From a virus (taxonomy: Duplodnaviria > Caudoviricetes), in IMG/VR virus record IMGVR_UViG_2906976556_000001, positions 8,557 to 72,556 of that record: a DNA stretch of 64,000 bases; one strand, given 5' to 3'. Under the pieces are notes generated by a model. The model was not told the origin of the DNA and made no database searches. It worked only from the letters and a program-made list of their open reading frames with translations. The first letter of the stretch is position 1, and each line of letters opens with the position of its first letter. This document shows, one piece after another, positions 8,067-64,000 of this stretch. A program made the translations under genes and the position numbers.

Positions 8067-8680
8067 AGACCCTTCCAATCCGGGTAGTTCAGAATCTTGT
8101 CGCGGCGCTTACCGAGCATCTCCAACGCGAGGACCCGGCGGCGCTCGGTGTCGTCCTGGCCGAGGAGGTAGCCCTTCACCTCGGACGGCGTCCATTCCGT
8201 CGGGTTGAATGTCTTCGGCGGGTCGGTTTCCACCGTCGCGGTGGCGGGCCCCTCCGCCTCCTCGGGCGGGCGGAATCCCTTGTCCAGCAGCTGCTGGAAG
8301 TGCACCTGATTCTGTTCGGTGGTGAATGCGTCCATGTCCTGCGCCACCATCGGCACCGAATCCGGCTCGTCGAAGTCGACCCACTGCGAAGTGTTGTTCA
8401 GCGTGTGATGCTGGCCCATCGCCGGGAGCTTCAGCTTCTTCGTCTGCACCGGAAGCTTCGACACATGGATGTTGCCGTCGGCGTCGGCGAGCGTATGCAG
8501 GTCGGAGACATGCACATACCCGCCCTCCGGGATGCGTTCGGACAACACCTCGAGACTGTCGTCGTCCGGGGTGTAGCGGGCGGTGGCGCCGTACACCATC
8601 GACCCGACGAACAACCACTGGTGACGCTTCTTCGGATCCTCTTGGGCGAGGCACCACTGCTGAGTAGGTATGCGCGGCAA
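8063..8680 (-). CDS. Minor tail protein (DUF2744-like)
   Basis: Position after the baseplate gene; RIPTQ...DP...HQWLF N-terminus. Confidence 0.6.
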   Translation of the reverse strand: MPRIPTQQWCLAQEDPKKRHQWLFVGSMVYGATARYTPDDDSLEVLSERIPEGGYVHVSDLHTLADADGNIHVSKLPVQTKKLKLPAMGQHHTLNNTSQWVDFDEPDSVPMVAQDMDAFTTEQNQVHFQQLLDKGFRPPEEAEGPATATVETDPPKTFNPTEWTPSEVKGYLLGQDDTERRRVLALEMLGKRRDKILNYPDWKGL

Positions 8681-27507: not shown

Positions 27508-28113
27508 TCAGAAAACGATCATTCGGCTGCTCACCTGGTTCGGTTCGGGCCAGCCAGCTGCCCAGGAATCCGCAGCTGCCTCATGTGCGACGATTGATGC
27601 CATTGCGGCGTCGATCTTTTGGTGATCGGTGGGTTTGCCGAGAACGTATTTCTGGCCTGGCTTCGCCACTTTGCGTGCGTTCGCGATGTGAATCGCGGTG
27701 ATCGGGCAACCGTCATGCGATATGCGCCCGGTCGCGAGATCCGTCTCGAAACGGCGGATCGACTCGTACATCTGATTGACACGCCCTGTGTGCCACTCGA
27801 AGACGTGCTCCTCGCCGTGGTTTCGTGACCAATCACCGATCTCCGAGTACCAGTCCTGCGGGTCGCAGTACATTCGCTCGACCTTGTACCTGTCGAAGAT
27901 CTCGTCGACCGCTGCATGGACCTCGCCGCGAGGAATACGGCCTTCCCACTCACTCGGATCCCAGATCGTCGGGAGATCGTCAGGCCCGTACCGAGGAGTG
28001 AACTGAACGCCATCTCGTGTCTCGCAACGGATCGCGGTCCAGTCATTGTTCTCGGAACCGTCGAAGCCAACGGCCACCTGAGTTCCGGCCGGTGGGTTAG
28101 GAAGCCACAGCAT
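27508..28113 (-). CDS. terL: Terminase large subunit, nuclease domain (separate ORF)
   Basis: VGFDGSENND, YCDP, KIDAAMA RNase H-like motifs; ATG at 28113 overlaps the ATPase ORF by 17 nt. Confidence 0.85.
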   Translation of the reverse strand: MLWLPNPPAGTQVAVGFDGSENNDWTAIRCETRDGVQFTPRYGPDDLPTIWDPSEWEGRIPRGEVHAAVDEIFDRYKVERMYCDPQDWYSEIGDWSRNHGEEHVFEWHTGRVNQMYESIRRFETDLATGRISHDGCPITAIHIANARKVAKPGQKYVLGKPTDHQKIDAAMASIVAHEAAADSWAAGWPEPNQVSSRMIVF

Positions 28114-30148
28114 CGACGTACCTGTCGTTCCACAAGCCGTCCCGCAACCACGAGCCCTGGCCGTACACAAGACGATTCCCGAAGAACCGCTCAGCCTGAG
28201 CTGGGTCGGTCTCGCCGATCTCCAGCGCTTCCGCCTCGATCGAGTCGAGGTTCACCCACGGCGAACCCTCGTACACGTACTTCAGGATCTTCCGACGCTC
28301 ACGCTTGTTGCCCCACGAAAGGCCAACCGGCGGAATGCGGTAGAACTTGAACACGTCAGTCACCCGCGACTCGTAGGTCTGCTGAGCGGTCGAGTTCTCG
28401 GCCGGATCCCACGCATTCGTGGTCTCCATCGTCCGACCGTTCATGCCGGCTGCGCCGCGACGCTGATCCTGAGCGACCTTCAGCATCTTGTTCGACCGCG
28501 TGTACAAGCCGGACTCGTCGTGCAGCACCCAGGACACCGGGTTACCGACACGACCATTCGCCGACGACGTCACTGCGTCGATCCGGTCGAAATCCTCACC
28601 CGGACTTTCGCCTGCGATTCGAACGAAACCCTCGCGCACGAACAGCAACTCGGACAGGGGCCCAAGACGGATCATCGCCGTCAGCGGCCGATAGACGTTG
28701 TCGACCTGGTCCTCGTTCGTCGCAGTCAGCTGAATGACTGGCGACGGATGCCGCATCCCCATCGGCTCCCCCGGCTCATACGGAAACTCCCAGCCGCACG
28801 AGCACCCGTAGTCAGAGCACGCATACCCGTCATCGCGACCAGCCCATCCGAGGAACTGACTCGGGCCGACAGCCTCGAACGTCGCCATCGATGCCGACCA
28901 CGGTCCCTTGCCTGTGTTGCAGGTCGGAATCATCTCCCGGCCGGCGAGGAACACGTGCGAGTCTGCAGCGACAGTCAGGCATTGCGTGGGGACAGTTTCG
29001 ACGCGCTCCACACTGACAATCCGACGGTGACCGAACTGGGCGTGACCGCGGCCAGGGGAACGTAGGCGTTCCTGCTTCCGATCCAAGCCGAACACCGGCA
29101 TATCGCTGCGAGCAGAGAAAGCTATGCGCCACTTTGGGCCAGTCACACGGCCTTTCAACGTCGCGTGACCCGAGTAGCACTTCGGCCGGATACCAAGCGA
29201 CGCGAGGAGCTCAAGCATCCCGTCGCGGAGGGCTGAAAGTGTGGTCGTGAACTCGCACTTGCCCTGACGCTCGTCGCAGTGCCCGTCCGTGTCCATCAAG
29301 CCCTGCAGCAACGACCAACGTTGCTTCTCCGATGACCGCAAGTACTCAGCCGGAATGTGCTTGTTATTCAACACGCCCAGCCGTCGAAGTGTCGCCTTCA
29401 ACCCGACGACGCCAACCCGCTTCTCGACCTTGTGGCGCCGAACTTCGTGACCCGCGAGCTCAATGTTCTCCCAGATCTGGACGTCCAGTCCAGTGAGTCG
29501 ACCATCATCGGAATTACCGTCACCCAGCCATGCACCCAGCGTGTATGGGTCAAGCAGCAACTCGGCGTCGGGCAACTGCAGCGGCTTCGCATTCGGGACA
29601 CGGAACACCCGCGCACCATCGCGAACCAAGTTCCCCACGAGATCCTCGGTCCGCACCCGCATCGGCACGTACTTGGACGACGGATTCCGCCACTCGACCC
29701 ACCACTGATGGTCCTTGCACGCCGTCAACGACGAACCGTCCGAAAACGCCACCCGGTATGTATCCGAATGCCAGACAGGAGACTTCGACACGACACGGGT
29801 GGGGTCACCCTGCTCGTCGAACACGAAATCTCCGACTTGCAGAGCCGCCATCGTCGACCAACCGTCAGGAGTAGCGATCGGCGTATCCAGCGCCAACGCC
29901 TTCTGCGGCGCGACGATCTGAGCTCGGCGATAGGTGAACGCCTGGTTGAACAACGGCTGCCCGTCGATCCACTCCACGCCCGGTCGGATCCGGTAGTAGT
30001 TGGCGGAGCACCAGAACTGCCAATCCGACCACACGAACTCGGCGCCACGGTTGTAGCCGTCCGGGATCCGGCAGTGCTGCCGAGTCCACGCTTCCCCAAG
30101 ATCACCAAGAGTGGGGAAGTCGACCAGGAAGCCGTCAGTTGCCTCCAC
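28097..30148 (-). CDS. terL: Terminase large subunit, ATPase domain, intein-containing
   Basis: Walker A APQK|TGKG interrupted by an intein; Walker B VLHDESG; TTNAW coupling motif. Confidence 0.9.
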   Translation of the reverse strand: MEATDGFLVDFPTLGDLGEAWTRQHCRIPDGYNRGAEFVWSDWQFWCSANYYRIRPGVEWIDGQPLFNQAFTYRRAQIVAPQKALALDTPIATPDGWSTMAALQVGDFVFDEQGDPTRVVSKSPVWHSDTYRVAFSDGSSLTACKDHQWWVEWRNPSSKYVPMRVRTEDLVGNLVRDGARVFRVPNAKPLQLPDAELLLDPYTLGAWLGDGNSDDGRLTGLDVQIWENIELAGHEVRRHKVEKRVGVVGLKATLRRLGVLNNKHIPAEYLRSSEKQRWSLLQGLMDTDGHCDERQGKCEFTTTLSALRDGMLELLASLGIRPKCYSGHATLKGRVTGPKWRIAFSARSDMPVFGLDRKQERLRSPGRGHAQFGHRRIVSVERVETVPTQCLTVAADSHVFLAGREMIPTCNTGKGPWSASMATFEAVGPSQFLGWAGRDDGYACSDYGCSCGWEFPYEPGEPMGMRHPSPVIQLTATNEDQVDNVYRPLTAMIRLGPLSELLFVREGFVRIAGESPGEDFDRIDAVTSSANGRVGNPVSWVLHDESGLYTRSNKMLKVAQDQRRGAAGMNGRTMETTNAWDPAENSTAQQTYESRVTDVFKFYRIPPVGLSWGNKRERRKILKYVYEGSPWVNLDSIEAEALEIGETDPAQAERFFGNRLVYGQGSWLRDGLWNDRYVDAVAS
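28916..29899 (-). mobile_element. Class 3-type intein with LAGLIDADG homing endonuclease (328 aa)
   Basis: Starts ALALDTPI; block B DHQW; LGAWLGDG and LQGLMDTDG; block F TQCLTV; ends IPTCN followed by Thr. Confidence 0.9.
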
Positions 30149-30936: not shown

Positions 30937-31290
30937 TCAGAATCGGGCGGCCTGGCGGGAGTTGCAGGATCGGCAGGTGACGGAGAGCGGTCCGCGTGGG
31001 TCGCCGCCGAGGGCGATAGGGGTCACGTGGTTGGCGGTGAGGCCGCCGTCCCGCTCTGTGAGGTAGTGGGCGGGGCGTCCGATTCCGGGGCACCATTCGC
31101 CGTTGATCGCTCGGTGGGCGTCGACGGCTGCCTTGCGGCGTGCCTGCTCTTCACCGTCGCGTGTGGCCTTCGTGGGGACTGTCGCTCGTTGATGTCGTTC
31201 TCGGTCCTTTGCATGCTCCCGGCACAGGGGGCCGGCCTGCATGCGTGGGCATCCGGCGATGCGGCACACCTTCAGCGTGGCGCGTGACAC
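30937..31290 (-). CDS. HNH endonuclease (packaging-associated)
   Basis: CRIAGC...C..H and NHVTP...CRSCN; immediately before cos/terS. Confidence 0.8.
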   Translation of the reverse strand: MSRATLKVCRIAGCPRMQAGPLCREHAKDRERHQRATVPTKATRDGEEQARRKAAVDAHRAINGEWCPGIGRPAHYLTERDGGLTANHVTPIALGGDPRGPLSVTCRSCNSRQAARF

Positions 31291-31454
31291 TACTCGTGGA
31301 GCTCTCTGCCGTCGAGGCTGTGGTGAGTGACCAGCCAGCCCATGCTGCCGTCGTCGCGTGGTACAGGCTCGGTGGTTGGGCCGCACGGGCAGTCGCCGTC
31401 GAGGTGTTCGATGAGGTCGTCGACTGGCACGACGTGGATGTCGCCGGTGGCCAT
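31290..31454 (-). CDS. Small hypothetical protein (CPCGP)
   Basis: MATGDIHVVPVDDLIEH...HHSLDGRE, 54 aa, coupled on both sides; below the ORF-track cutoff. Confidence 0.55.
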   Translation of the reverse strand: MATGDIHVVPVDDLIEHLDGDCPCGPTTEPVPRDDGSMGWLVTHHSLDGRELHE

Positions 31455-31735
31455 CAGTCTTCGCCGAACAGGACTGCGCTCGCGATGCCGTCCTCACGGA
31501 TAGAGGCGACATTGAGAATGCCTTGGCTGTCTCCGATGTCCATGCTGCTTCGCTTGAAGAACGACCATGCCACCAGGTCGTCATCTCCGTCGAAGTAGCT
31601 GGCCTTCGAGACGAGGTACCAGGCGGTGATGATCTTGCCGCTGTCCGGATCGTCCTCGCCGTACGCGACACGGGCTTGTTCGATCGCGGCTTCGATGGCG
31701 TCGTCGGCTGCGATCTGTTCGGGTGTGCGTGACAC
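31454..31735 (-). CDS. Hypothetical protein
   Basis: GGAG RBS; TGATG coupling. Confidence 0.55.
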   Translation of the reverse strand: MSRTPEQIAADDAIEAAIEQARVAYGEDDPDSGKIITAWYLVSKASYFDGDDDLVAWSFFKRSSMDIGDSQGILNVASIREDGIASAVLFGED

Positions 31736-35131: not shown

Positions 35132-36031
35132 TCAGAAGTCTCCTGGCGCGACCTGGAAGCAGGGCAGGCCAATCTCCCGCCACATTTGCACGACCTGCGT
35201 TCGATCATCGAATACGGCCTGCACGTTGTACCGGTGGCGCACATGCTTGTCGAACAGTTCAGCCTTCACGACGGCGTCCTTGCGTCCGTCACCGTTCTGG
35301 CGCATCAGCAGCTCGTCGAAGCGGACGTCGAAGCGATGAAGCCACGCCGCCGTGTCTGCTAGGCAGGAATCTTCGCGGCCGGACATCACGATGATCTTGC
35401 CGTCGAGCCGATCGATAACCTCTGCGACGTGAACCACCAGCGTGTCCTCGGAGACGCGCGTGTAGTCGTACGGTCCACGGTCGCCCATCGAAGCGAGGGT
35501 GCCGTCGACATCGACGATGTAGGCGCGCGGCGAAGACAGGTCCGGCACATACGGTGCTGGCTTCACCGCGACGTCAGGCCGCACCTCGATCGGCTGCCAC
35601 GACTTGATCGGGAACCGTGCCGCCATATCGCGGATCGCCGTCTCGCCGACGAACCGGCCACCCTCGACTGCACGGTGCTTGTCGCGGCGTAGGCATTCCT
35701 CCAACGGCGTCGGGACATCCTGCGTCACGAAGTCGGCGCCCACCTGTTTCGCCAGAGACGCGATCTCGCGGGCGTACTTCATCCGCAGATTCGTATCATC
35801 GAACACCACCGAGACGCCATTCTCGAGCAGATGTTTCGCCGCGGTGTGCTGGGCGATCGTGACGGCCCGCTCTTGTAGATAGGTGCCAACACCATCGACA
35901 GCGAACAGGGACGCACGGAGATCGTCTCGGTTCAGCCGGGCACGCCTCTCCGGGTCCTCGGCGACCCAGGTGCGAGCCCACGTCGTCTTACCGGATCCTG
36001 GGTAGCCGCGCGTCGCGACGACGACGGTCAT
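35132..36031 (-). CDS. pnk: Polynucleotide 5'-kinase/3'-phosphatase (T4 PseT-like)
   Basis: GYPGSGKT Walker A, NRDDLR; HAD DVDGT, SGR, FDDR, QVAPGDF. Confidence 0.95.
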   Translation of the reverse strand: MTVVVATRGYPGSGKTTWARTWVAEDPERRARLNRDDLRASLFAVDGVGTYLQERAVTIAQHTAAKHLLENGVSVVFDDTNLRMKYAREIASLAKQVGADFVTQDVPTPLEECLRRDKHRAVEGGRFVGETAIRDMAARFPIKSWQPIEVRPDVAVKPAPYVPDLSSPRAYIVDVDGTLASMGDRGPYDYTRVSEDTLVVHVAEVIDRLDGKIIVMSGREDSCLADTAAWLHRFDVRFDELLMRQNGDGRKDAVVKAELFDKHVRHRYNVQAVFDDRTQVVQMWREIGLPCFQVAPGDF

Positions 36032-37116
36032 GCGACTGCCTCCGAATGGTCGAGCATGAACGTGTCACCGCGGGGTTTCAGGGTCTTCCAGATGGCGGTG
36101 TTCATGCGGTCCTGCTGGCCGTCGAGGAGGCAGAACAGTAGCGGCGTGTTGTCGTGACGTTTCGCGATCTCGGCGAATTCTCGGCGGTCACCAGATGGCG
36201 CGATTTCGCGGATCGAATCGAATGCGGCGCGCGCAGTGTCCGCTATGGCCCGGTGCTGCTTCTGCAGCGTGAGCCAAGTCTTGGTGAGCCAGTCGTGGAA
36301 TTCGTCGGGCAGGTCGAGAACGAGATCCTCGAACGGCTTCCCGGCGGCGGCATGCTCCCACACCGTCTTCTCGGACATGCCCGTCACGATCTTGTGGAGC
36401 TGCACGTACCGTTCCAGCTTCAGCTTGACCATGGTGCCGTCTTGGAAGTGGACGACGAAGCCCTCGGCGTTGTCTCGGACTGGCGCTCGAAGTGCCTCCC
36501 CGAGAGTGGCGTACGGGAACCGTTCCGCTTTCCGGCCAGGCCACTCGTAGCCGGCATGCGGGGACCCGACGTGCCCGGTCTCGTTGTCCACCACCGCGAG
36601 CAGGACGAGTCCCTCGAAGTCGTAGTCGACGACGATTCGGTTCGCCCTGTAGATGATCTCGAACAGGTACGTGAACCCCGGCTCCGGGCTCCACACATCG
36701 AAGTAGAGGTCCGTGAAGTGTTGGGTCGCCCACTTCGCTTGATCTGATTCGAACGAGCCGCGGGTCGCGATCGCATACCCGCCCTGGCCTGTCGGGTACA
36801 GGATGCCGAGTGAGCCGTCGAGTTTGTCAGTCACTTCCACCGGTGCCGACAGGTCGAGCTGCGGCAGCCGGTCGCCGTCGTGCTCGGCGTCGTTAAAGAA
36901 CTTCGGGAACGGCCGGGCGATAACTTCACCGGTGTCGTCGACGATGAGTCCGCGGCACTGCAGAGTGACGTCGTCCCACGTGCGCGAGTAGGCGGCGAGC
37001 TCCGAGTAGTTGTAGATCCGGTACGGCAACGTCGGATGCGCGCGGACTTTGACCATGCCCTCATCGATCCGGGCCTGCAGCGCAACCGGACTCATAAGCT
37101 GGTCGATGTTCACCAT
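36028..37116 (-). CDS. rnlA: RNA ligase, T4 Rnl1 (RnlA)-like
   Basis: QCRGLI, RPFPKFFN, motif I KLDGSLG, ATRGSF, FEII, EGFV, VKLK. Confidence 0.93.
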   Translation of the reverse strand: MVNIDQLMSPVALQARIDEGMVKVRAHPTLPYRIYNYSELAAYSRTWDDVTLQCRGLIVDDTGEVIARPFPKFFNDAEHDGDRLPQLDLSAPVEVTDKLDGSLGILYPTGQGGYAIATRGSFESDQAKWATQHFTDLYFDVWSPEPGFTYLFEIIYRANRIVVDYDFEGLVLLAVVDNETGHVGSPHAGYEWPGRKAERFPYATLGEALRAPVRDNAEGFVVHFQDGTMVKLKLERYVQLHKIVTGMSEKTVWEHAAAGKPFEDLVLDLPDEFHDWLTKTWLTLQKQHRAIADTARAAFDSIREIAPSGDRREFAEIAKRHDNTPLLFCLLDGQQDRMNTAIWKTLKPRGDTFMLDHSEAVA

Positions 37117-37859
37117 GCGATCTCCCCGAGGTAGTGGCGGCGGACGCGCTGCAGGAAGTCCTCGACCGGCGCCTCGTCCGGCTGGTCGGGCAGCGGGGAC
37201 GTGGCAGCGTTGAACTTGATCTGGTATTCGGTGATGAGGGTGCGGGCGGCGAGCGCTTCGGGATCGTTGACTATCGACCGACCGAAGTCGAAGAAGGGCT
37301 GCGGATCCGGCACCTTGATCGGCAGCACGCCGGTCGTGTACAGCTCGTAGCCCTGCCACAGCAGCCTCATCGTGTGCCGAGCGTGCTTCTCGCGGCGGGT
37401 CTCGAGCGACCCTTGGAAGCGTCCACGGTGCACGAGACGGTGGAACTGGCTGGTGGCGTAACCGAAGAACGCGTCGCGGACTCGTTTCCTCGTGAGGAAG
37501 TTCGATCGCAGCGAGATCAGTTCCTCACCGAACTGGTTCTGTCGGAGGTAGTGGGGGAGCCACAGGATCTCGGACGCGGTCGGGTTGCACGACAACATGA
37601 GGCCGAGCGCCTTGCCGAGTTCGTGGAACGTGGTGTCCGGGTCCTTCCGCTTCCACGTCGCCCGTTCACGCTGCGGCGGATGCAGTCCCAGCAGCACTTC
37701 GGTCGGTTCGACGTAGATGCCGGAGTAGTCGATGTCTGAAGTTGGCGTGTTCAGCCCGTAGGCGACCGACCCGACGACGCCTTCCAGAAGGATGTGCGAG
37801 GTGCGGGTTTCGGGGTTGAACTTCGGGTGTGGTCGAACGAGTTTCGCGGTGTCGCTCAT
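37110..37859 (-). CDS. DNA polymerase beta-superfamily nucleotidyltransferase (RlaP/YcgL-like)
   Basis: GSVAYGLNTPTSDIDYSG (GS...DxD), CNPT..EIL, KHARHTMRL. Confidence 0.88.
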   Translation of the reverse strand: MSDTAKLVRPHPKFNPETRTSHILLEGVVGSVAYGLNTPTSDIDYSGIYVEPTEVLLGLHPPQRERATWKRKDPDTTFHELGKALGLMLSCNPTASEILWLPHYLRQNQFGEELISLRSNFLTRKRVRDAFFGYATSQFHRLVHRGRFQGSLETRREKHARHTMRLLWQGYELYTTGVLPIKVPDPQPFFDFGRSIVNDPEALAARTLITEYQIKFNAATSPLPDQPDEAPVEDFLQRVRRHYLGEIAW

Positions 37860-38452
37860 CGGATCCCCTGTCGGTTTGGCTGGTTCCGGTTTCGGCGTGG
37901 GCGACGTGAACGGCCCGGGTTGTTCGCCCACATCGGTGGCGTTAACGAAGGGCTGGGCATGCGGACCCATGCATGCCCCGATTCGCGGGGCGTGTCTTCG
38001 CCTTCCATCCGTGTCGTGGTGACACCGGTGTCGGGATCTGTCGAATGCTCGGCGACGACACCGATATGGACTCGGCCGTTCTCGTCCTGGTAGCCGATGC
38101 GGTCGCCGCGCTGCAGTCTCGGCGCCTCAGGGCGAGGGGCATCAACGAGGACGATGTCACGGAAGATCGCCGCTATGGACTCCGCATGCTCGGCGAGACG
38201 ACGGAGCGCCGACGTGACGCCGTCCCCGACGGTGATAGTCCACCCTGGTGTTCCGCTGCCCCATGGAACGAACACGTTGTCGGTGAGCGGGCCCTCGGAA
38301 GCCGAGCCGGGGCAGCCTGTCTGCGGCAGGCCGTGCCACGACCTGCCGCAGCGGCACACTGGGGCGCGGCCCCCGAAGACTGGTTCGCCGCCCGCCATCT
38401 GCTCGTCCACGAGGCGATCGATGTCGTCGAGGACGTCCTGCTCTGGGTTCAT
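37856..38452 (-). CDS. Hypothetical protein with C-x-C...H...C motif
   Basis: MNPEQDVLDDID start, TGATG and ATGA overlaps with both neighbours. Confidence 0.65.
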   Translation of the reverse strand: MNPEQDVLDDIDRLVDEQMAGGEPVFGGRAPVCRCGRSWHGLPQTGCPGSASEGPLTDNVFVPWGSGTPGWTITVGDGVTSALRRLAEHAESIAAIFRDIVLVDAPRPEAPRLQRGDRIGYQDENGRVHIGVVAEHSTDPDTGVTTTRMEGEDTPRESGHAWVRMPSPSLTPPMWANNPGRSRRPRRNRNQPNRQGIR

Positions 38453-40023
38453 CAGAACGGCCAGTCGGTGTCGGTTCCGTTCTCCAGGAGGGGGATCTGC
38501 CGGAACGCTTGATCCGTCAGTCCGCCGAAAACGTGACGGTTGGGTCCGGATGCGGTGTGGCCATGCCGGTATCCGGCCAGGTTGTACGTGAACAGGGGGA
38601 CGTGATCGGGGATGACGTCGCCCGGGTCTCCGTAGTAGCCGCCGCCCTGTTCGTCCGTGAGGATGACGACACGGTTGTGACTGGAGAACGCAGCCTTCGT
38701 CGCCCCGGCGGTCGCTGTACCGCCGCCGAGGAAGTAGCCGTCCGTCCGCCACCGCTTCAACCCGGACAGGAGGGATTCACCGAGGACCTTCGGGAAGATC
38801 GCGGCCCGGTTCGAGTAGGACACGACGGTGGCGTCGTCGCAACGCCGCGCCAACGCCAACCCGAACAGGGTGGCGGCGTCCCACCGCATCAGGGTGCCGT
38901 CCTTCGAGAACCCGGAATGCATCGAGCTCGACGTGTCGACCATGATCAACGTCCGACCCGGCAGGGAGGGGATGTTGGCGACCGATGCGTCGAGTGCCTT
39001 CTCCAGCGGGTACGACCAGCGCAGCGACGGGGCCGCGTTGTACGCGGACAGGAAGCGGAGCGGGAACTGGCGAGACCTCGCGACCTGAAGCGGTTCGGAC
39101 AGGAACGCGGCGACGACCTCCGCCACCTCATCGGAAACGCCAGCCTGGTCGAAGTTGCGGAGATTCCGGAGCAGGGCCATGTAGCCCATCGACGGGATGA
39201 TCGCCTCCCACAGCTCCTTCGTCCACGGCCCGTTCACCAACGACGGAATCGACTCCCACGTCGCGCCTGCGTCTGCGAGCGCAGGCGCAAGCGCACCCGT
39301 CTCGGCGAGATGGGTGACCTGGGTGGGGTTGAGCTTGCGAAGCGAGGCATTGCGGCGCAGGGTCTCGAGCTCGCCGGGGATCTCCAATCCGTCGACGCCG
39401 ATCCGCTGCCCGATGACGTAATGGAACAGCGCCTGCTGCCACTCGGCCTTCGGTGTCGGCCGGGTCAGCCGGATGACGTCAGCGAACCGCACACCATGAG
39501 ACGCGGTGTCGTACTTGAGGACCGAGCGTTCCGTGTACAGCCGAACGACTGCATCAGCGACGCCGCGCTTCACCGGCTTCGGCAGCTTCCGGCCGTACCG
39601 TGAATGCCAGTAGGCGATGAACTCGCCTGGCTCGTCCGGCCGCTGCAGGACCGCGTTGACGATGCCGCGGGAACCGTCAAGGCCCGCGTCGAGGCGGGCC
39701 TTCACTGCTTCGGCAGCGAGAACGAGAGACGCAGTCCGCATGTTCGCCTCGGAACGCAGCCAGGTCGCGAACCGTGTCAACCAGTCGAAGTCATCGACAG
39801 CGACCGCCTTGACCAGTGAGGTGAAGCGGGAGTCGCGGTCGCGGGCGTTCTCGTAGAACGTGTCCTCGCCAACCATGTTCGCCACCGCCAGCAGGAACAG
39901 TTCCGACTTAGTGTCACGGGTGAACCCGGGTGCGCCTTCGAACGTGCGGCCGGACGGGGAGGTCTCCGACCGGATCGGGCCTCTACCCGCCGGACGAGCC
40001 AGGGCGGTGTTGAACTTCGACAT
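38452..40023 (-). CDS. rsr: Ro60/TROVE-domain RNA-binding protein (Rsr)
   Basis: TFEGAPGF, RPDEPGE, MGYMALLRNLRN, SRQFPLRF; vWA MIDAS DTSSSM and ILTDEQ; ATG at 40023 with GAGAGG RBS. Confidence 0.95.
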   Translation of the reverse strand: MSKFNTALARPAGRGPIRSETSPSGRTFEGAPGFTRDTKSELFLLAVANMVGEDTFYENARDRDSRFTSLVKAVAVDDFDWLTRFATWLRSEANMRTASLVLAAEAVKARLDAGLDGSRGIVNAVLQRPDEPGEFIAYWHSRYGRKLPKPVKRGVADAVVRLYTERSVLKYDTASHGVRFADVIRLTRPTPKAEWQQALFHYVIGQRIGVDGLEIPGELETLRRNASLRKLNPTQVTHLAETGALAPALADAGATWESIPSLVNGPWTKELWEAIIPSMGYMALLRNLRNFDQAGVSDEVAEVVAAFLSEPLQVARSRQFPLRFLSAYNAAPSLRWSYPLEKALDASVANIPSLPGRTLIMVDTSSSMHSGFSKDGTLMRWDAATLFGLALARRCDDATVVSYSNRAAIFPKVLGESLLSGLKRWRTDGYFLGGGTATAGATKAAFSSHNRVVILTDEQGGGYYGDPGDVIPDHVPLFTYNLAGYRHGHTASGPNRHVFGGLTDQAFRQIPLLENGTDTDWPF

Positions 40024-40065
40024 GGGGCCTCTCTCAACATCGTTGGAGGGGAGCCGAACCATGCG

Positions 40066-40204
40066 TAGCAGTGCCGAGAAACGGAAGGGGGCCACGCTGA
40101 TTAAATTTCTCGCTCTACCAACTGAGCTACCTGAGCTGCACGCACAGGGCGGGGGTCGAACCCGCGACACAGAAGGATGCGCAGTCGGCACACCGGCACT
40201 GCCA
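40066..40204 (-). ncRNA. Y RNA-like 1 (YrlA-type circularly permuted tRNA mimic)
   Basis: Terminal stem GCAGTGCC/GGCACTGC, GGTGTG...TTTCTC; T arm GCGGG-TTCGACC-CCCGC precedes closed acceptor-like hairpin CCTG/CAGG and D arm TAGCTCAGTTGGTAGAGC. Confidence 0.88.
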
Positions 40205-40217
40205 CTATGGAATTAGG

Positions 40218-40321
40218 CCCCCGAGGAATAGTGCGTAACCGTCTGCGGGCTTGAACCGCAACAACGAACCACAGTCCGTTGCCTGAACCAGAAGTAACGG
40301 TCCGACGCGACACACCGGGAG
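40218..40321 (-). ncRNA. Y RNA-like 2 (T arm only, no D arm)
   Basis: CTCCC/GGGGG stem, GGTGTG...TTCCTC, TACTTCT, 9-bp hairpin, T arm TGCGG-TTCAAGC-CCGCA. Confidence 0.75.
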
Positions 40322-40337
40322 TGCAAATGCGTTTAGT

Positions 40338-40480
40338 GCGTGGCTGAGGAAAAGTCGATGGTGGTAACGAAGTGTTCTAGGCCGCTGAACTACGGGACTC
40401 GTTGAGCCTCGGTGGGATTCGAACCCACGTCTCTCTCTTAGCAGGAGAAGTAACCACATGCATCTGCACACCAGCCACGC
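40338..40480 (-). ncRNA. Y RNA-like 3 (YrlA-type, with anticodon-like hairpin)
   Basis: GCGTGGCT/AGCCACGC stem, GGTGTG...TTCCTC, TACTTCT; T arm GTGGG-TTCGAAT-CCCAC then D arm TAGTTCAGCGGCCTAGAAC. Confidence 0.88.
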
Positions 40481-40493
40481 TGTTCAGTTGTAA

Positions 40494-40566
40494 TGCTTCA
40501 GAGAAAGCCGTGGGGCACGGGATAATTCACCCAAAGAAGTACCGCGACCCGATCACACCTGAAGCA
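40494..40566 (-). ncRNA. Y RNA-like 4 (minimal, no tRNA domain)
   Basis: TGCTTCA/TGAAGCA stem, GGTGTG...TTTCTC, TACTTCT. Confidence 0.72.
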
Positions 40567-40572
40567 CCACAA

Positions 40573-40601
40573 ACGTTATCGGCGCCGACGTTGACACTCA
40601 A
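40573..40601 (-). promoter_or_regulatory. Putative SigA promoter of the Y RNA/rsr/RNA-repair locus
   Basis: TTGAGT-N17-TAACGT, with 6 nt between the -10 and the first Y-like stem; palindrome TCGGCGCCGA in the spacer. Confidence 0.6.
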
Positions 40602-40616
40602 CCTGTTTCCGAACGG

Positions 40617-41405
40617 TCAGAATCGGCGGTCGATCTCGGCGGCCGCCCAGTCCGTCCACGTCAGCGTCGAGCCGGGGAATCGCTCGGTCGCATACAGGGT
40701 GTGTTCGGTGGTGCGCGGTGTCCGGGCCGGGTTGGGGAATGCGTATCCGGCGAGGCCGATGAGTGCTTCGGTGTAGCGGCCGGGGCGGATGCGGGCGAGC
40801 CAGTCAGCTTTGCGGAGGGCGTCGACGGACTTGAACGGGTCGGCGGCTTTGCCTTCGAGTGCTGCGAAGGGGGAGAGTCCGCGGGCGATGTGTCGTGCGG
40901 GGGAGTATTCGTCGGCGTTGCCGATGATGTCGTGCGGGTTGCAGACTTCGAGGTTCAACATTCCGGCGGGGAGTGGGCCGTGGGATGAGTGAAGGCCAGA
41001 GCCTTTCAGCCCGGAGACGGCGGAGTCGCCCCTGTTTCGGGACGGGTTTGCGATGCCGACGTGGAAAGCGATCTCCATCCGCGACCCGTCACGGTTCCGG
41101 TACTTGCCGGAGGCGACGCCTTCGAGGAACCGCATCGCGGCAATGCCACCGAGACTGTACGACACGAGTCCGACAACATCGTTCGTCGATTGGACGAAGC
41201 GGACGAGGTCGGCGACGGCCTGGGTGACGGAGTCGTCGAGGGACAGTGGGAGTTCCCCGGCCGCGCGGATGTTCCCGATCGATGCCGAATATGAGATGTC
41301 GTAAAGGTCCCACTTGTTTTGGAAGTGGCGGGCGACGTGGCCGGTCATGGCGCCGTTGAGTGCACCGCGCTGGTTGGCGGTGCCGCGGATCGTTACGAGG
41401 ATCAT
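40617..41405 (-). CDS. lysB: Lysin B-like cutinase/serine esterase
   Basis: TIRGT N-terminus, GLVSYSLGG nucleophile elbow, IANPSR, candidate Asp (HDII) and His (EHTLY). Confidence 0.72.
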   Translation of the reverse strand: MILVTIRGTANQRGALNGAMTGHVARHFQNKWDLYDISYSASIGNIRAAGELPLSLDDSVTQAVADLVRFVQSTNDVVGLVSYSLGGIAAMRFLEGVASGKYRNRDGSRMEIAFHVGIANPSRNRGDSAVSGLKGSGLHSSHGPLPAGMLNLEVCNPHDIIGNADEYSPARHIARGLSPFAALEGKAADPFKSVDALRKADWLARIRPGRYTEALIGLAGYAFPNPARTPRTTEHTLYATERFPGSTLTWTDWAAAEIDRRF

Positions 41406-41776
41406 GGGGTCTCCAGTTCGGTGATCTCCAAGGTGATGCGCGGGTTCGCGCGGTCGAGTTCGACGCGGCAGGACTCGGTGCGGACGAACACGTAGTGGTC
41501 GTCGGGCCAGACACCGGCGTCTTTGAAGCCGTCGATCGTCGCTTTCAGGAGAGGAAAGAGGCTGCCAGCGTCGCGGCGGATGGCGTTGGGCGCCCACCAC
41601 GTGATGAGGACGTCGGAGCGGGTGTGCTCGCGGATCTTCAGGGATTTCGCGAGGGCCCACATTTCGCGGCGGACGGTCTTGGTGGTGCGCGAGTTGTGGC
41701 GGCCGGTGGACCGGGCGGACTCGTTGGATGTTTTCGGTGGCCGCAGGTAGGGGAGTGTGACGAGGGTGGCGGTCAC
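41402..41776 (-). CDS. rusA: RusA-like Holliday junction resolvase
   Basis: RRDAGSL...KATIDGFKDAGVWPDD. Confidence 0.8.
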   Translation of the reverse strand: MTATLVTLPYLRPPKTSNESARSTGRHNSRTTKTVRREMWALAKSLKIREHTRSDVLITWWAPNAIRRDAGSLFPLLKATIDGFKDAGVWPDDHYVFVRTESCRVELDRANPRITLEITELETP

Positions 41777-63873: not shown

Positions 63874-63954
63874 AGCTGGTTCGAAGAGCTGTACTGACCA
63901 GCAGAAACAGTGAAAATTGGGGATCTGCTCGGACCTGGCTGGACCCCGTCGAAT

Positions 63955-64000
63955 GGACTTCTAATCCCTTGGTCGCAGGTTCGAATCCTGCCGGGGGCAC
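63955..64000 (+). other. Attachment site core: 3' half of tRNA-Arg(TCT)
   Basis: GGA-CTTCTAA-TCC anticodon loop, GGTC variable loop, GCAGG-TTCGAAT-CCTGC T arm, 3' acceptor strand; no D arm or 5' acceptor strand upstream. Confidence 0.88.

Follow-up and report, generated by a model that had tools for sequence, protein, structure and literature searches.

A predicted Y RNA upstream of a phage rsr gene probably carries a homologue of the tRNA anticodon arm

We analysed a stretch of 64,000 nucleotides (the window; positions 8,557 to 72,556 of IMG/VR record IMGVR_UViG_2906976556_000001, Caudoviricetes), part of a 72.5 kb viral record that has direct terminal repeats and is estimated to be complete. 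On the minus strand of the window, approximately 530 nt without a convincing open reading frame (ORF) separate an endolysin-like ORF from rsr, which encodes a Ro60 orthologue (Table 1). This non-coding stretch holds four tandem Y RNA-like genes, Y-a to Y-d, which have in common a GGTGTG-type 5' motif plus (T)ACTTC or CCTTC. Y-b lies 315–457 nt upstream of the rsr start (40023) on the same strand, and its positions 40374–40449 are probably the tRNA-like module of a YrlA-class Y RNA, containing a homologue of the tRNA anticodon arm, upstream of the rsr gene of a high-G+C actinophage.

Table 1 Features of the Y RNA-like cluster, with the parts of Y-b, and of the flanking genes (window positions; MFE, minimum free energy).
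Feature	Positions	Strand	Evidence or description
Endolysin-like ORF	40617–41660	minus	PHROG 102
Y-a	~40493–40567	minus	GGTGTG and TACTTC motifs, terminal stem, no T arm
Y-b, YrlA type, ~143 nt, predicted Y RNA with anticodon-like hairpin	40338–40480	minus	MFE folds
Y-b: outer stem P0, 10 pairs	40480–40471 with 40347–40338	minus	MFE folds
Y-b: 5'-strand motif CTGGTGTGCAGATG	40461–40474	minus	variant of the homologues' CCGGTGCG(C/A)AGG; conserved alignment columns
Y-b: P1 5' strand GTGGT-T-AC	40450–40457	minus	pairs with 40361–40368; sequence, MFE fold
Y-b: anticodon-arm-like hairpin TTCTC-CTGCTAA-GAGAG	40433–40449	minus	RF00005 alignment, enrichment, covariation
Y-b: AGAC, variable-loop-like 4-nt spacer	40429–40432	minus	Rfam tRNA alignment
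Y-b: T arm GTGGG-TTCGAAT-CCCAC	40412–40428	minus	Rfam YrlA and tRNA alignments
Y-b: closed acceptor-like hairpin CGAGGCTC-AAC-GAGTCCCG	40393–40411	minus	sequence, Rfam YrlA
Y-b: TA (U8 A9 equivalents)	40391–40392	minus	Rfam alignments
Y-b: D arm GTTC-AGCGGCCTA-GAAC	40374–40390	minus	Rfam alignments; D helix predicted in homologue alignments
Y-b: linker ACTTC, then P1 3' strand GT-T-ACCAC (40368–40361)	40361–40373	minus	sequence, MFE fold, RNAalifold
Y-c	~40218–40321	minus	same motifs, 8-bp/4-nt hairpin one base before a T-arm-like hairpin, no D arm
Y-d, YrlA without anticodon-like hairpin	~40088–40204	minus	Rfam YrlA
rsr, Ro60 orthologue, TROVE + vWA, 523 aa	38452–40023	minus	Pfam TROVE 3.2e-17; PHROG 850 RNA-binding protein 1.3e-47
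RlaP nucleotidyltransferase	37110–37970	minus	Pfam RlaP 1.7e-25
Rnl1-type RNA ligase	36028–37359	minus	Pfam RNA_lig_T4_1 1e-13
Pnkp	35132–36031	minus	Pfam HAD_PNKP 1.2e-49

The ends of Y-b, which are predicted, pair as the outer stem P0, and RNAalifold also predicted an outer stem, with covariation, from 15 homologues. The inner stem P1, which has one U.U mismatch in Y-b, is present in the RNAalifold consensus of 15 type-I homologues. A YUAY element (UUAC, 40453–40450) directly precedes the hairpin; among 92 aligned homologues its T and C are invariant and its A nearly so. The hairpin itself is composed of TTCTC (40449–40445), the loop CTGCTAA (40444–40438) and GAGAG (40437–40433), forming five pairs of which one is U.G. 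The acceptor-like stem, closed by AAC in the Y-b DNA, has seven tRNA-like pairs, one C.A mismatch and an extra G:C pair by the loop, and in homologues the corresponding helix covaries over 7–8 bp. The original prediction, made from the letters of the window alone, had placed all four tRNA arms here in a permuted arrangement, its break lying between the anticodon-like arm and the D arm. The sequence and the Rfam tRNA alignments bear this out, and every part stood at the coordinates and in the minus-strand order given for 40374–40449.

The Rfam tRNA model (RF00005, gathering score 29) aligned 40404–40449, queried alone, on the minus strand as a 5'-truncated tRNA spanning model positions 26–71 (29.1 bits, E = 4.1e-5), with the hairpin matched to the anticodon arm and AGAC to the variable loop. 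This score depends on the hairpin, because the same stretch with the hairpin deleted gave no listed tRNA match (the best in the clan was tmRNA, 13.8 bits) and neither did the equivalent, hairpin-less 46 nt of Y-d. In Y-b, as in the 3' part of a tRNA, the order is colinear, from an anticodon arm of 5 bp whose 7-nt loop has U33 and R37, through the variable loop and the T arm, to the acceptor 3' strand. The segment 40373–40399 aligned to tRNA positions 1–25 with only 10 bits (E = 4.4), a low score because the segment is short. The Rfam scan at gathering threshold reported no tRNA at the Y-b locus, and ARAGORN called 0 genes over the native window. The Rfam YrlA model, whose consensus contains no hairpin ahead of the T arm, aligned the T arm, acceptor-like hairpin and D arm at 40374–40431 to model positions 28–81; Y-b also shares with YrlA the location near rsr on the same strand, the order of the arms and the YUAY element. 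An ARAGORN test on sequences permuted by script was dropped because it did not discriminate: it called 24 of 31 sequences, with the expected anticodon for each of the 11 that have a perfect hairpin, and still called 21 of 31 once the hairpin had been shuffled.

The Y RNA cluster was too diverged for comparison at the DNA level (blastn against phage records gave one weak match, Gordonia phage BearBQ, with 78% over 80 nt), and homologues were therefore anchored through Rsr. The survey comprised 33 phage loci found via Rsr, two named phages and at least 80 bacterial loci, numbered with the prefix L below. An element was a perfect T arm within 1 kb upstream of rsr with the motif T[ATC]CTTC in the preceding 45 nt; after removal of identical copies, 53 phage and 128 bacterial elements were retained. 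The distance from TTC to the T stem peaked at 21–22 nt (22/53 phage and 70/128 bacterial elements), which equals 5 + 7 + 5 plus 4 or 5 nt. A perfect hairpin, defined as a 5-bp stem (G.U allowed) with a 7-nt loop, stood 4–5 nt before the T stem in 19/53 phage and 58/128 bacterial elements, and shuffled flanks gave 1.28 ± 1.10 (maximum 7) and 2.56 ± 1.58 (maximum 10), respectively. In the phage set, other registers yielded 0–3 and other loop sizes at most 5 hairpins; in the bacterial set a loop size of 7 gave 58 and the next best size 13. Among T arms outside Y elements, which mostly belong to true tRNAs of phage tRNA arrays, 10/20 passed the strict hairpin test. Sequence comparison across these loci confirmed that the hairpin is present in Y-type elements more often than expected by chance.

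For covariation, alignments were selected by spacing alone and not by pairing, and comprised 47 sequences with 21 nt and 45 sequences with 22 nt between TTC and the T stem. The hairpin helix was paired in 86.5% and 84.4% of cells, respectively, and the T-arm helix was 100% paired in both. The two inner pairs of the hairpin were changed on both sides in 15 and 25 sequences of the 21-nt set and in 15 and 9 sequences of the 22-nt set. When the partner strand was slid by 1–3 columns, whole-structure pairing fell from 93.3% and 92.2% to 33–67%. RNAalifold on 15 sequences predicted the hairpin, T arm, acceptor-like hairpin, D arm and terminal stems, but for the hairpin these sets are not independent because they were drawn from the matches of the hairpin survey. 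Two motifs are conserved across the phage and bacterial Y RNAs, CCGGTGCG(C/A)AGG on the 5' side and (G/T)(A/T)TCTCGG on the 3' side, with window sites at 40461–40474 and 40345–40355; together they are probably the Ro-binding site of the actinobacterial family. The strand carrying CTGGTGTGCAGATG in Y-b, which is like, yet not equal to, the GNCGAAN0-1G motif of Chen et al. 2014, lies at the first of these sites and is a candidate Rsr-binding strand. A separate feature of Micromonospora and Actinoplanes loci (L098, L099, L102, L105 and L114) is an extra G+C-rich hairpin of the GGCCCGCAAGGGCC type between the D arm and the P1 3' strand, at columns 115–132 of alignment A5.

The loops of the 77 perfect hairpins showed a pyrimidine at position 32 in 72, U33 in 73, a purine at position 37 in 73 and A38 in 73 of 77 cases, with flanks composed of T at 0.25 and A at 0.19. 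The middle triplet took 15 forms in the 19 phage loops and 24 forms in the 58 bacterial loops. The check proposed with the original prediction, whether homologues keep a 7-nt loop with a variable triplet, was thus answered positively: Y-U-NNN-R-A is kept and the triplet varies. CTGCTAA recurs with other stems in L015 (TTCTT/AAGAA), L027 (TTCAC/GTGAG), L089, L052 and L049; Microbispora L054 has the stem and spacer of Y-b with the loop CTTCTAA, and the nearest bacterial relative, Nocardia L038, has the 7-nt loop CTTTCAC. The spacers that follow the hairpin (AGGTC, TGGTC, TGGTT, AGAC and others) are ordinary class I variable loops, AGAC being the commonest in hairpin-bearing bacterial homologues (16/58). 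Micromonospora 44-mers are near-identical save for the triplet (CAT, TCC or CAA), and one paralogue type retains the triplet GTT across several genera (9/58). The pattern resembles an anticodon loop in which the frame is constrained and the triplet is either free or under selection; neutral drift or diversifying selection could each account for the turnover of the triplet. Position 36 is U in 9/19 phage and 24/58 bacterial loops, mostly followed by A37-A38, and U36-A37 is the context in which tRNAs receive t6A37.

The hairpin had originally been described as Ser(GCU)-like. This description holds for the triplet but not for the class of tRNA, since AGAC, with 4 nt, is a class I variable loop. 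Bacterial tRNA-Ser belongs to class II and has a long variable arm, and the phage tRNA-Ser(gct) genes called by ARAGORN in L013 and L015 are 89 nt long. Judged by its geometry, the Y32-U33-NNN-R37-A38 pattern of its loop and the class I variable loop that follows, the hairpin of this type is a predicted homologue of the tRNA anticodon arm, and the survey indicates that it is maintained by selection in many actinobacterial and actinophage YrlA RNAs.

By its place between YUAY and the T arm, the Y-b hairpin is identifiable as the V stem-loop of Chen et al. 2014, and the RNA therefore belongs to a known family. According to the portions of that paper drawn on here, YrlA adjoins rsr in 254 bacteria and 22 phages, under the criterion of a position within ~4 kb of rsr on the same strand, and many YrlA RNAs have a further, fourth stem-loop of lower conservation, V, upstream of the T arm, which is started by a conserved YUAY and was equated with the tRNA variable arm (PMC4201824). 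Between GGTTAY and the T arm, the published seed sequences contain the loops CTTCTAA (M. smegmatis and Streptosporangium), CTCATAA (Gordonia) and ATTGAAA (phage ET08), followed by TGGTC, AGGTT or AGGTC (PMC4201824). Because the seeds show its loop, the anticodon-like feature is present in the experimentally studied M. smegmatis YrlA, an RNA described in those portions as Rsr-bound, cut by RNase P and given CCA in vivo (PMC4201824). The word 'anticodon' has three uses in the parts of the main text drawn on, which concern either Yrn1 or acceptor-versus-anticodon orientation only (PMC4201824).

For Salmonella, the sections consulted of Wang et al. state that YrlA is without an anticodon loop and suggest that YrlA may stem from a tRNA dimer and resembles permuted tRNA genes (10.1101/312249). 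The statement accompanying the original prediction, that YrlA normally lacks an anticodon loop, matches what is written of the Salmonella RNA and needs correction for the many YrlA RNAs that carry V (PMC4201824, as far as drawn on). Its description of the RNA as non-chargeable is not secure, given the CCA reported for M. smegmatis YrlA in the same portions, and Y-b also has a 7-pair acceptor-like stem. Our literature searches found no anticodon-arm reading of the V stem-loop, although Burroughs and Aravind 2016, Sim and Wolin 2018 and Sim et al. 2020 may hold one, and this homology seems to be undescribed so far.

Several observations weigh against the anticodon-arm reading of Y-b. The perfect geometry is missing in 104/181 elements, and in L003 and L006, the closest phage relatives (Rsr identity of 69% and 66%), the element at this place combines a stem of 5 bp with a loop of 3 nt and a spacer of 2 nt. 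The three outer pairs of the helix are U.G/U-A, U-A/U.G and C-G; their 5' side, UUC, is invariant and belongs to a motif that is kept also in Y RNAs without the hairpin, so the outer pairs fit a helix yet give no compensatory evidence. With the Rfam YrlA model, Y-b scored 24.4 bits (E = 0.011), under the gathering score of 69, and its 108-nt fold was no more stable than shuffled sequences (z = -0.08, an uninformative value). The sequence would allow either the hairpin or the Y stem to lie under the D stem in three dimensions. Folded in isolation, 22/77 Y elements took the exact hairpin register, against 34/57 non-Y controls, mostly tRNA; by these models the hairpin stems are weak, and register prediction is unreliable even for tRNAs. 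In Y-b, ViennaRNA nearest-neighbour energies favoured a slipped register (-5.3 kcal/mol) over that with the 7-nt loop (-2.8 kcal/mol), with pair probabilities of 0.53–0.77 and 0.01–0.02, respectively, and MFE folds agreed. The 7-nt loop could then be absent in Y-b, either because the stem, which may slip owing to the GAGAGAGA run, adopts UUCUCCU/AG-GAGAG around a GCUA tetraloop and leaves a spacer of 2 nt, or because UACUUC pairs elsewhere. We regard this as unlikely: homologues with other stems cannot slip and yet keep the 5/7/5 plus 4–5 spacing, a 2-nt spacer would leave the tRNA-like core without a variable loop, and MFE folding missed the true register in 23/57 control hairpins, mostly of real tRNAs. 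A different arrangement, in which P1 replaces the anticodon stem under the D stem and the hairpin projects like a class II variable arm with its loop as an inherited trace, is possible but doubtful. It is the orientation chosen by Chen et al. 2014 (PMC4201824, portions drawn on), it agrees with the Salmonella crystal structure, where the Y stem takes the position of the anticodon stem (10.1101/312249, sections consulted), and it would be in line with a dimeric-tRNA origin. The weakness of the stems suits it, as does the survival of RNAs in which the hairpin is shortened to a 3-nt loop (L003, L006 and L029 -285) or absent (Y-d and many others). Against it speaks the layout of tRNA positions 27–48, with 0 nt before the hairpin and a 4–5-nt unpaired spacer of the AGGTC or AGAC type after it, a layout that differs from the long variable arm of class II tRNA. 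Five unpaired bases (ACTTC) also part the D stem from the P1 3' strand in Y-b, and positions 32, 33, 37 and 38 are each kept in 72–73 of 77 loops over distant genera while 34–36 vary; a functionless relic is disfavoured because it should decay evenly across the loop.

Two further explanations assign the loop a direct relation to tRNA processing. Y-b might be a circularly permuted tRNA gene, its transcript opened in the acceptor loop by RNase P, 3' processing and CCA addition, with the Y stem removed and the ends joined into a working tRNA. The order of parts fits this scheme, which was raised for YrlA by Wang et al. (10.1101/312249, sections consulted); the RNase P cleavage and CCA of M. smegmatis YrlA point in the same direction, a phage ligase gene lies nearby, and script-permuted Y-b is read by ARAGORN as tRNA-Ser(gct), in the lenient test whose shuffled control is given above. 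We nevertheless consider it very improbable, since the sections consulted know of no bacterial enzyme that would excise the stem (10.1101/312249), no bulge-helix-bulge motif was seen in P1 by eye, no formal search having been made, no bacterial tRNA-Ser is known to combine a GCU anticodon with a variable loop of 4 nt, and the conserved predicted Ro-binding stem favours a Y RNA role. The proposal made with the original prediction was instead that the loop is a bait for host anticodon nucleases, as decoy, competitive inhibitor or sensor, re-sealed by Pnkp, RlaP and Rnl1. Competitive inhibition of an anticodon nuclease by YrlA's tRNA-like domain has been put forward by Hughes et al. 2020 in the portion of the paper drawn on (PMC7790460). 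Such a role would agree with the RlaP, Rnl1 and Pnkp genes directly downstream on the same strand, and with a U33 and R37-A38 frame that is kept while the triplet varies even between close relatives, as in Micromonospora. The variability of the triplet is, however, explained equally well by absent constraint, and the GTT kept across genera is unlike what an arms race predicts. Searches with the repair proteins of the window also argue against the bait: tblastn over loci covering ~3 kb downstream of rsr found only RlaP, within 3 kb of rsr, in 1/35 related loci (L006). The Rnl1 family was found in 0/10 related phage records (three at least 90% and seven less than 90% complete), its own-genome control scoring 51.6 bits, and the negative records include the two complete ones holding L029 and L030, which have hairpin-bearing Y RNAs. 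Pnkp had no match in 5 related records, in a search for which the only genome known to score is the query's own. The hairpin is moreover common beside chromosomal rsr (58/128), where a phage decoy as such makes no sense, and Salmonella YrlA, which lacks such a loop, was uncut by the nuclease studied (PMC7790460, portion drawn on). On balance the bait is improbable. The anticodon-like arm did not evolve for the repair cassette, to judge from the scarcity of RlaP within 3 kb of rsr, the missing Rnl1 and Pnkp matches in the related records searched and the frequency of the hairpin by chromosomal rsr, and the cassette may still use the arm in the window phage. Still bolder, and quite unlikely in our estimate, is the general model in which the Ro-bound YrlA RNAs of actinobacteria and their phages carry anticodon stem-loop mimics with a fast-changing triplet and a fixed U-turn, set out as bait for anticodon-loop nucleases. 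In the window phage the loop, Rsr, RlaP, Rnl1 and Pnkp would then together make up a decoy or damage sensor capable of repairing itself; if true, it would protect the tRNA pool during infection.

For the reading we prefer, a Y RNA with an anticodon-arm homologue, we infer expression, Rsr binding and partners of Y-b as follows. The ends would pair into the long stem P0/P1 carrying the conserved 5' motif, and, as in M. smegmatis and D. radiodurans, the phage Rsr would be expected to bind the conserved 5' strand together with this terminal stem. The centre would be a five-way junction from which the anticodon-arm-like hairpin, the 4-nt variable loop, the T arm, the acceptor-like hairpin, U8-A9 and the D arm follow, the Y stem entering where nucleotide 26 of a tRNA joins the D stem to the anticodon stem. 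Elbow and anticodon-like arm together would offer a full tRNA surface to tRNA-recognising proteins. In the window phage the candidate partners are the RlaP-Rnl1-Pnkp enzymes or host anticodon-loop nucleases, which would tie the Ro-Y RNA particle to tRNA damage and repair during infection; our preferred guess is a particle serving as a scaffold on which Ro and the repair enzymes meet, rather than a nuclease bait.

YrlA RNAs have been described as tRNA mimics without an anticodon loop, and the V stem-loop in 77 of 181 elements has the size, the loop pattern and the following variable loop of an anticodon arm. The working model of the secondary structure would become a five-way junction, a finding that fits the proposed origin from a tRNA dimer, and the published idea that YrlA acts against anticodon nucleases becomes directly testable. 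There is also a consequence for annotation: the 5' part of a YrlA RNA is taken for a tRNA gene both by tRNA finders and by GenBank annotators, so that the number of tRNAs credited to phages becomes too high. In native loci, ARAGORN reported tRNAs at 8 Y elements, and in 7 of these the anticodon matches the loop triplet. In GenBank, the tRNA-Arg(tct) of Gordonia phage VanLee (L036, 3704–3775) and the tRNA-Arg(cct) of Streptomyces phage GiJojo (L037, 3769–3843) both sit on YrlA-like elements upstream of a Ro gene. In VanLee, approximately 4/7 positions of the annotated acceptor stem pair by eye, whereas its 3' strand pairs perfectly with the strand of a downstream hairpin, and the call therefore covers the 5' two-thirds of a YrlA. 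We regard the VanLee and GiJojo features as 5' parts of YrlA-like RNAs and not as free-standing tRNA genes. The converse interpretation implied by ARAGORN in 8 loci, with the Ro-binding 5' strand as a degenerate acceptor and D arm, was rejected on the VanLee pairing.

The other members of the cluster differ from Y-b in their parts. Y-d matched Rfam YrlA (RF02553) at 40088–40185 with 47 bits (E = 3.2e-9), below the gathering score, and a counterpart of Y-a occupies the same position in L003 and L006. The fold of the 591-nt cluster had z = -1.44 against shuffles, which is uninformative. In a scan of 39900–40800, the single promoter-like site was on the plus strand, and the two minus-strand terminator-like sites fell within Y-a and Y-d, of whose folds they probably form part. 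Downstream of rsr, the genes for RlaP, Rnl1 and Pnkp (PHROGs 388, 562 and 505) directly follow and span 35132–37970 on the minus strand. Among the matches listed, the closest bacterial relatives of the Rsr protein are from Nocardia (68% identity), and those in named phages are from Streptomyces, Gordonia and Arthrobacter phages (45–48% identity), for which reason the host is probably an actinomycete. Elsewhere in the window, a 683-aa ORF with a LAGLIDADG homing-endonuclease domain (28097–30148, minus strand; Pfam 1.7e-6) is possibly an intein-containing or endonuclease-invaded gene, and an HNH-type ORF is located at 30937–31671. A 58-nt tRNA-like element without a D arm (63942–63999, plus strand) consists of an acceptor stem, an anticodon arm with the loop CTTCTAA and a T arm. 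It scored 32.1 bits with Rfam tRNA, above the gathering score of 29, with no ARAGORN call, and stops one base short of the window end, where the viral record also has its right end; possibly the element represents a 3' fragment of a tRNA, as found at attachment sites of phages.

Compared with known systems, Y-b is most like YrlA (RF02553), above all the copies of M. smegmatis and mycobacteriophage ET08. Both are situated just upstream of rsr on the same strand, are ~140–150 nt long, have ends that pair (in Y-b, are predicted to pair) as a stem with a conserved 5'-strand motif, and proceed from YUAY through a stem-loop, the T arm, the closed acceptor-like hairpin and UA to the D arm; M. smegmatis YrlA also has a 7-pair acceptor-like stem. 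Differences are that the 5' motif of Y-b is GGTGTGCAGATG (in homologues CCGGTGCG(C/A)AGG) and not GNCGAAN0-1G, and that Y-b is one of four tandem genes beside RlaP-Rnl1-Pnkp rather than RtcB/RtcA. Salmonella YrlA differs in having no hairpin at the corresponding place. The published account of the V stem-loop matches in position, but in the text as drawn on mentions neither the 5-bp/7-nt geometry nor U33/R37-A38 or a class I variable loop (PMC4201824). The 'anticodon arm' of D. radiodurans Yrn1 is likewise a Y RNA hairpin with a 5-bp stem that was likened to an anticodon arm; in the portions drawn on, however, it has a 6-nt loop, lies between T-like and D-like hairpins, at the place of the acceptor-like hairpin of YrlA, and belongs to a separate lineage (PMC4201824). 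The permuted tRNA genes of red algae and an archaeon (Soma 2007, cited in the sections consulted of 10.1101/312249) are similar in that the 3' half comes first, a short loop joins the acceptor ends and the ends of the transcript pair beside the anticodon region, and they differ in being matured by splicing endonuclease and ligase at a bulge-helix-bulge. Y-b has by comparison a long terminal stem, conserved as a predicted Ro-binding module.

T4-type healing and sealing sets Pnkp and Rnl1 against the anticodon nuclease PrrC, its substrate being a tRNA cut in the anticodon loop, and we know of no Ro protein or Y RNA that takes part in it. The same enzyme families, together with RlaP (PMC7824862, portion drawn on), are encoded directly downstream of rsr in the window, and the link between Y RNA and repair is here solely one of gene neighbourhood, to which RlaP in L006 adds. 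The b7a-tRNA beside RtcB (Burroughs and Aravind 2016, as cited in the sections consulted of 10.1101/312249) is comparable as a tRNA look-alike in RNA-repair neighbourhoods. It has been proposed to be interchangeable with YrlA, and differs from it in that it is said to resemble an authentic, unpermuted tRNA.

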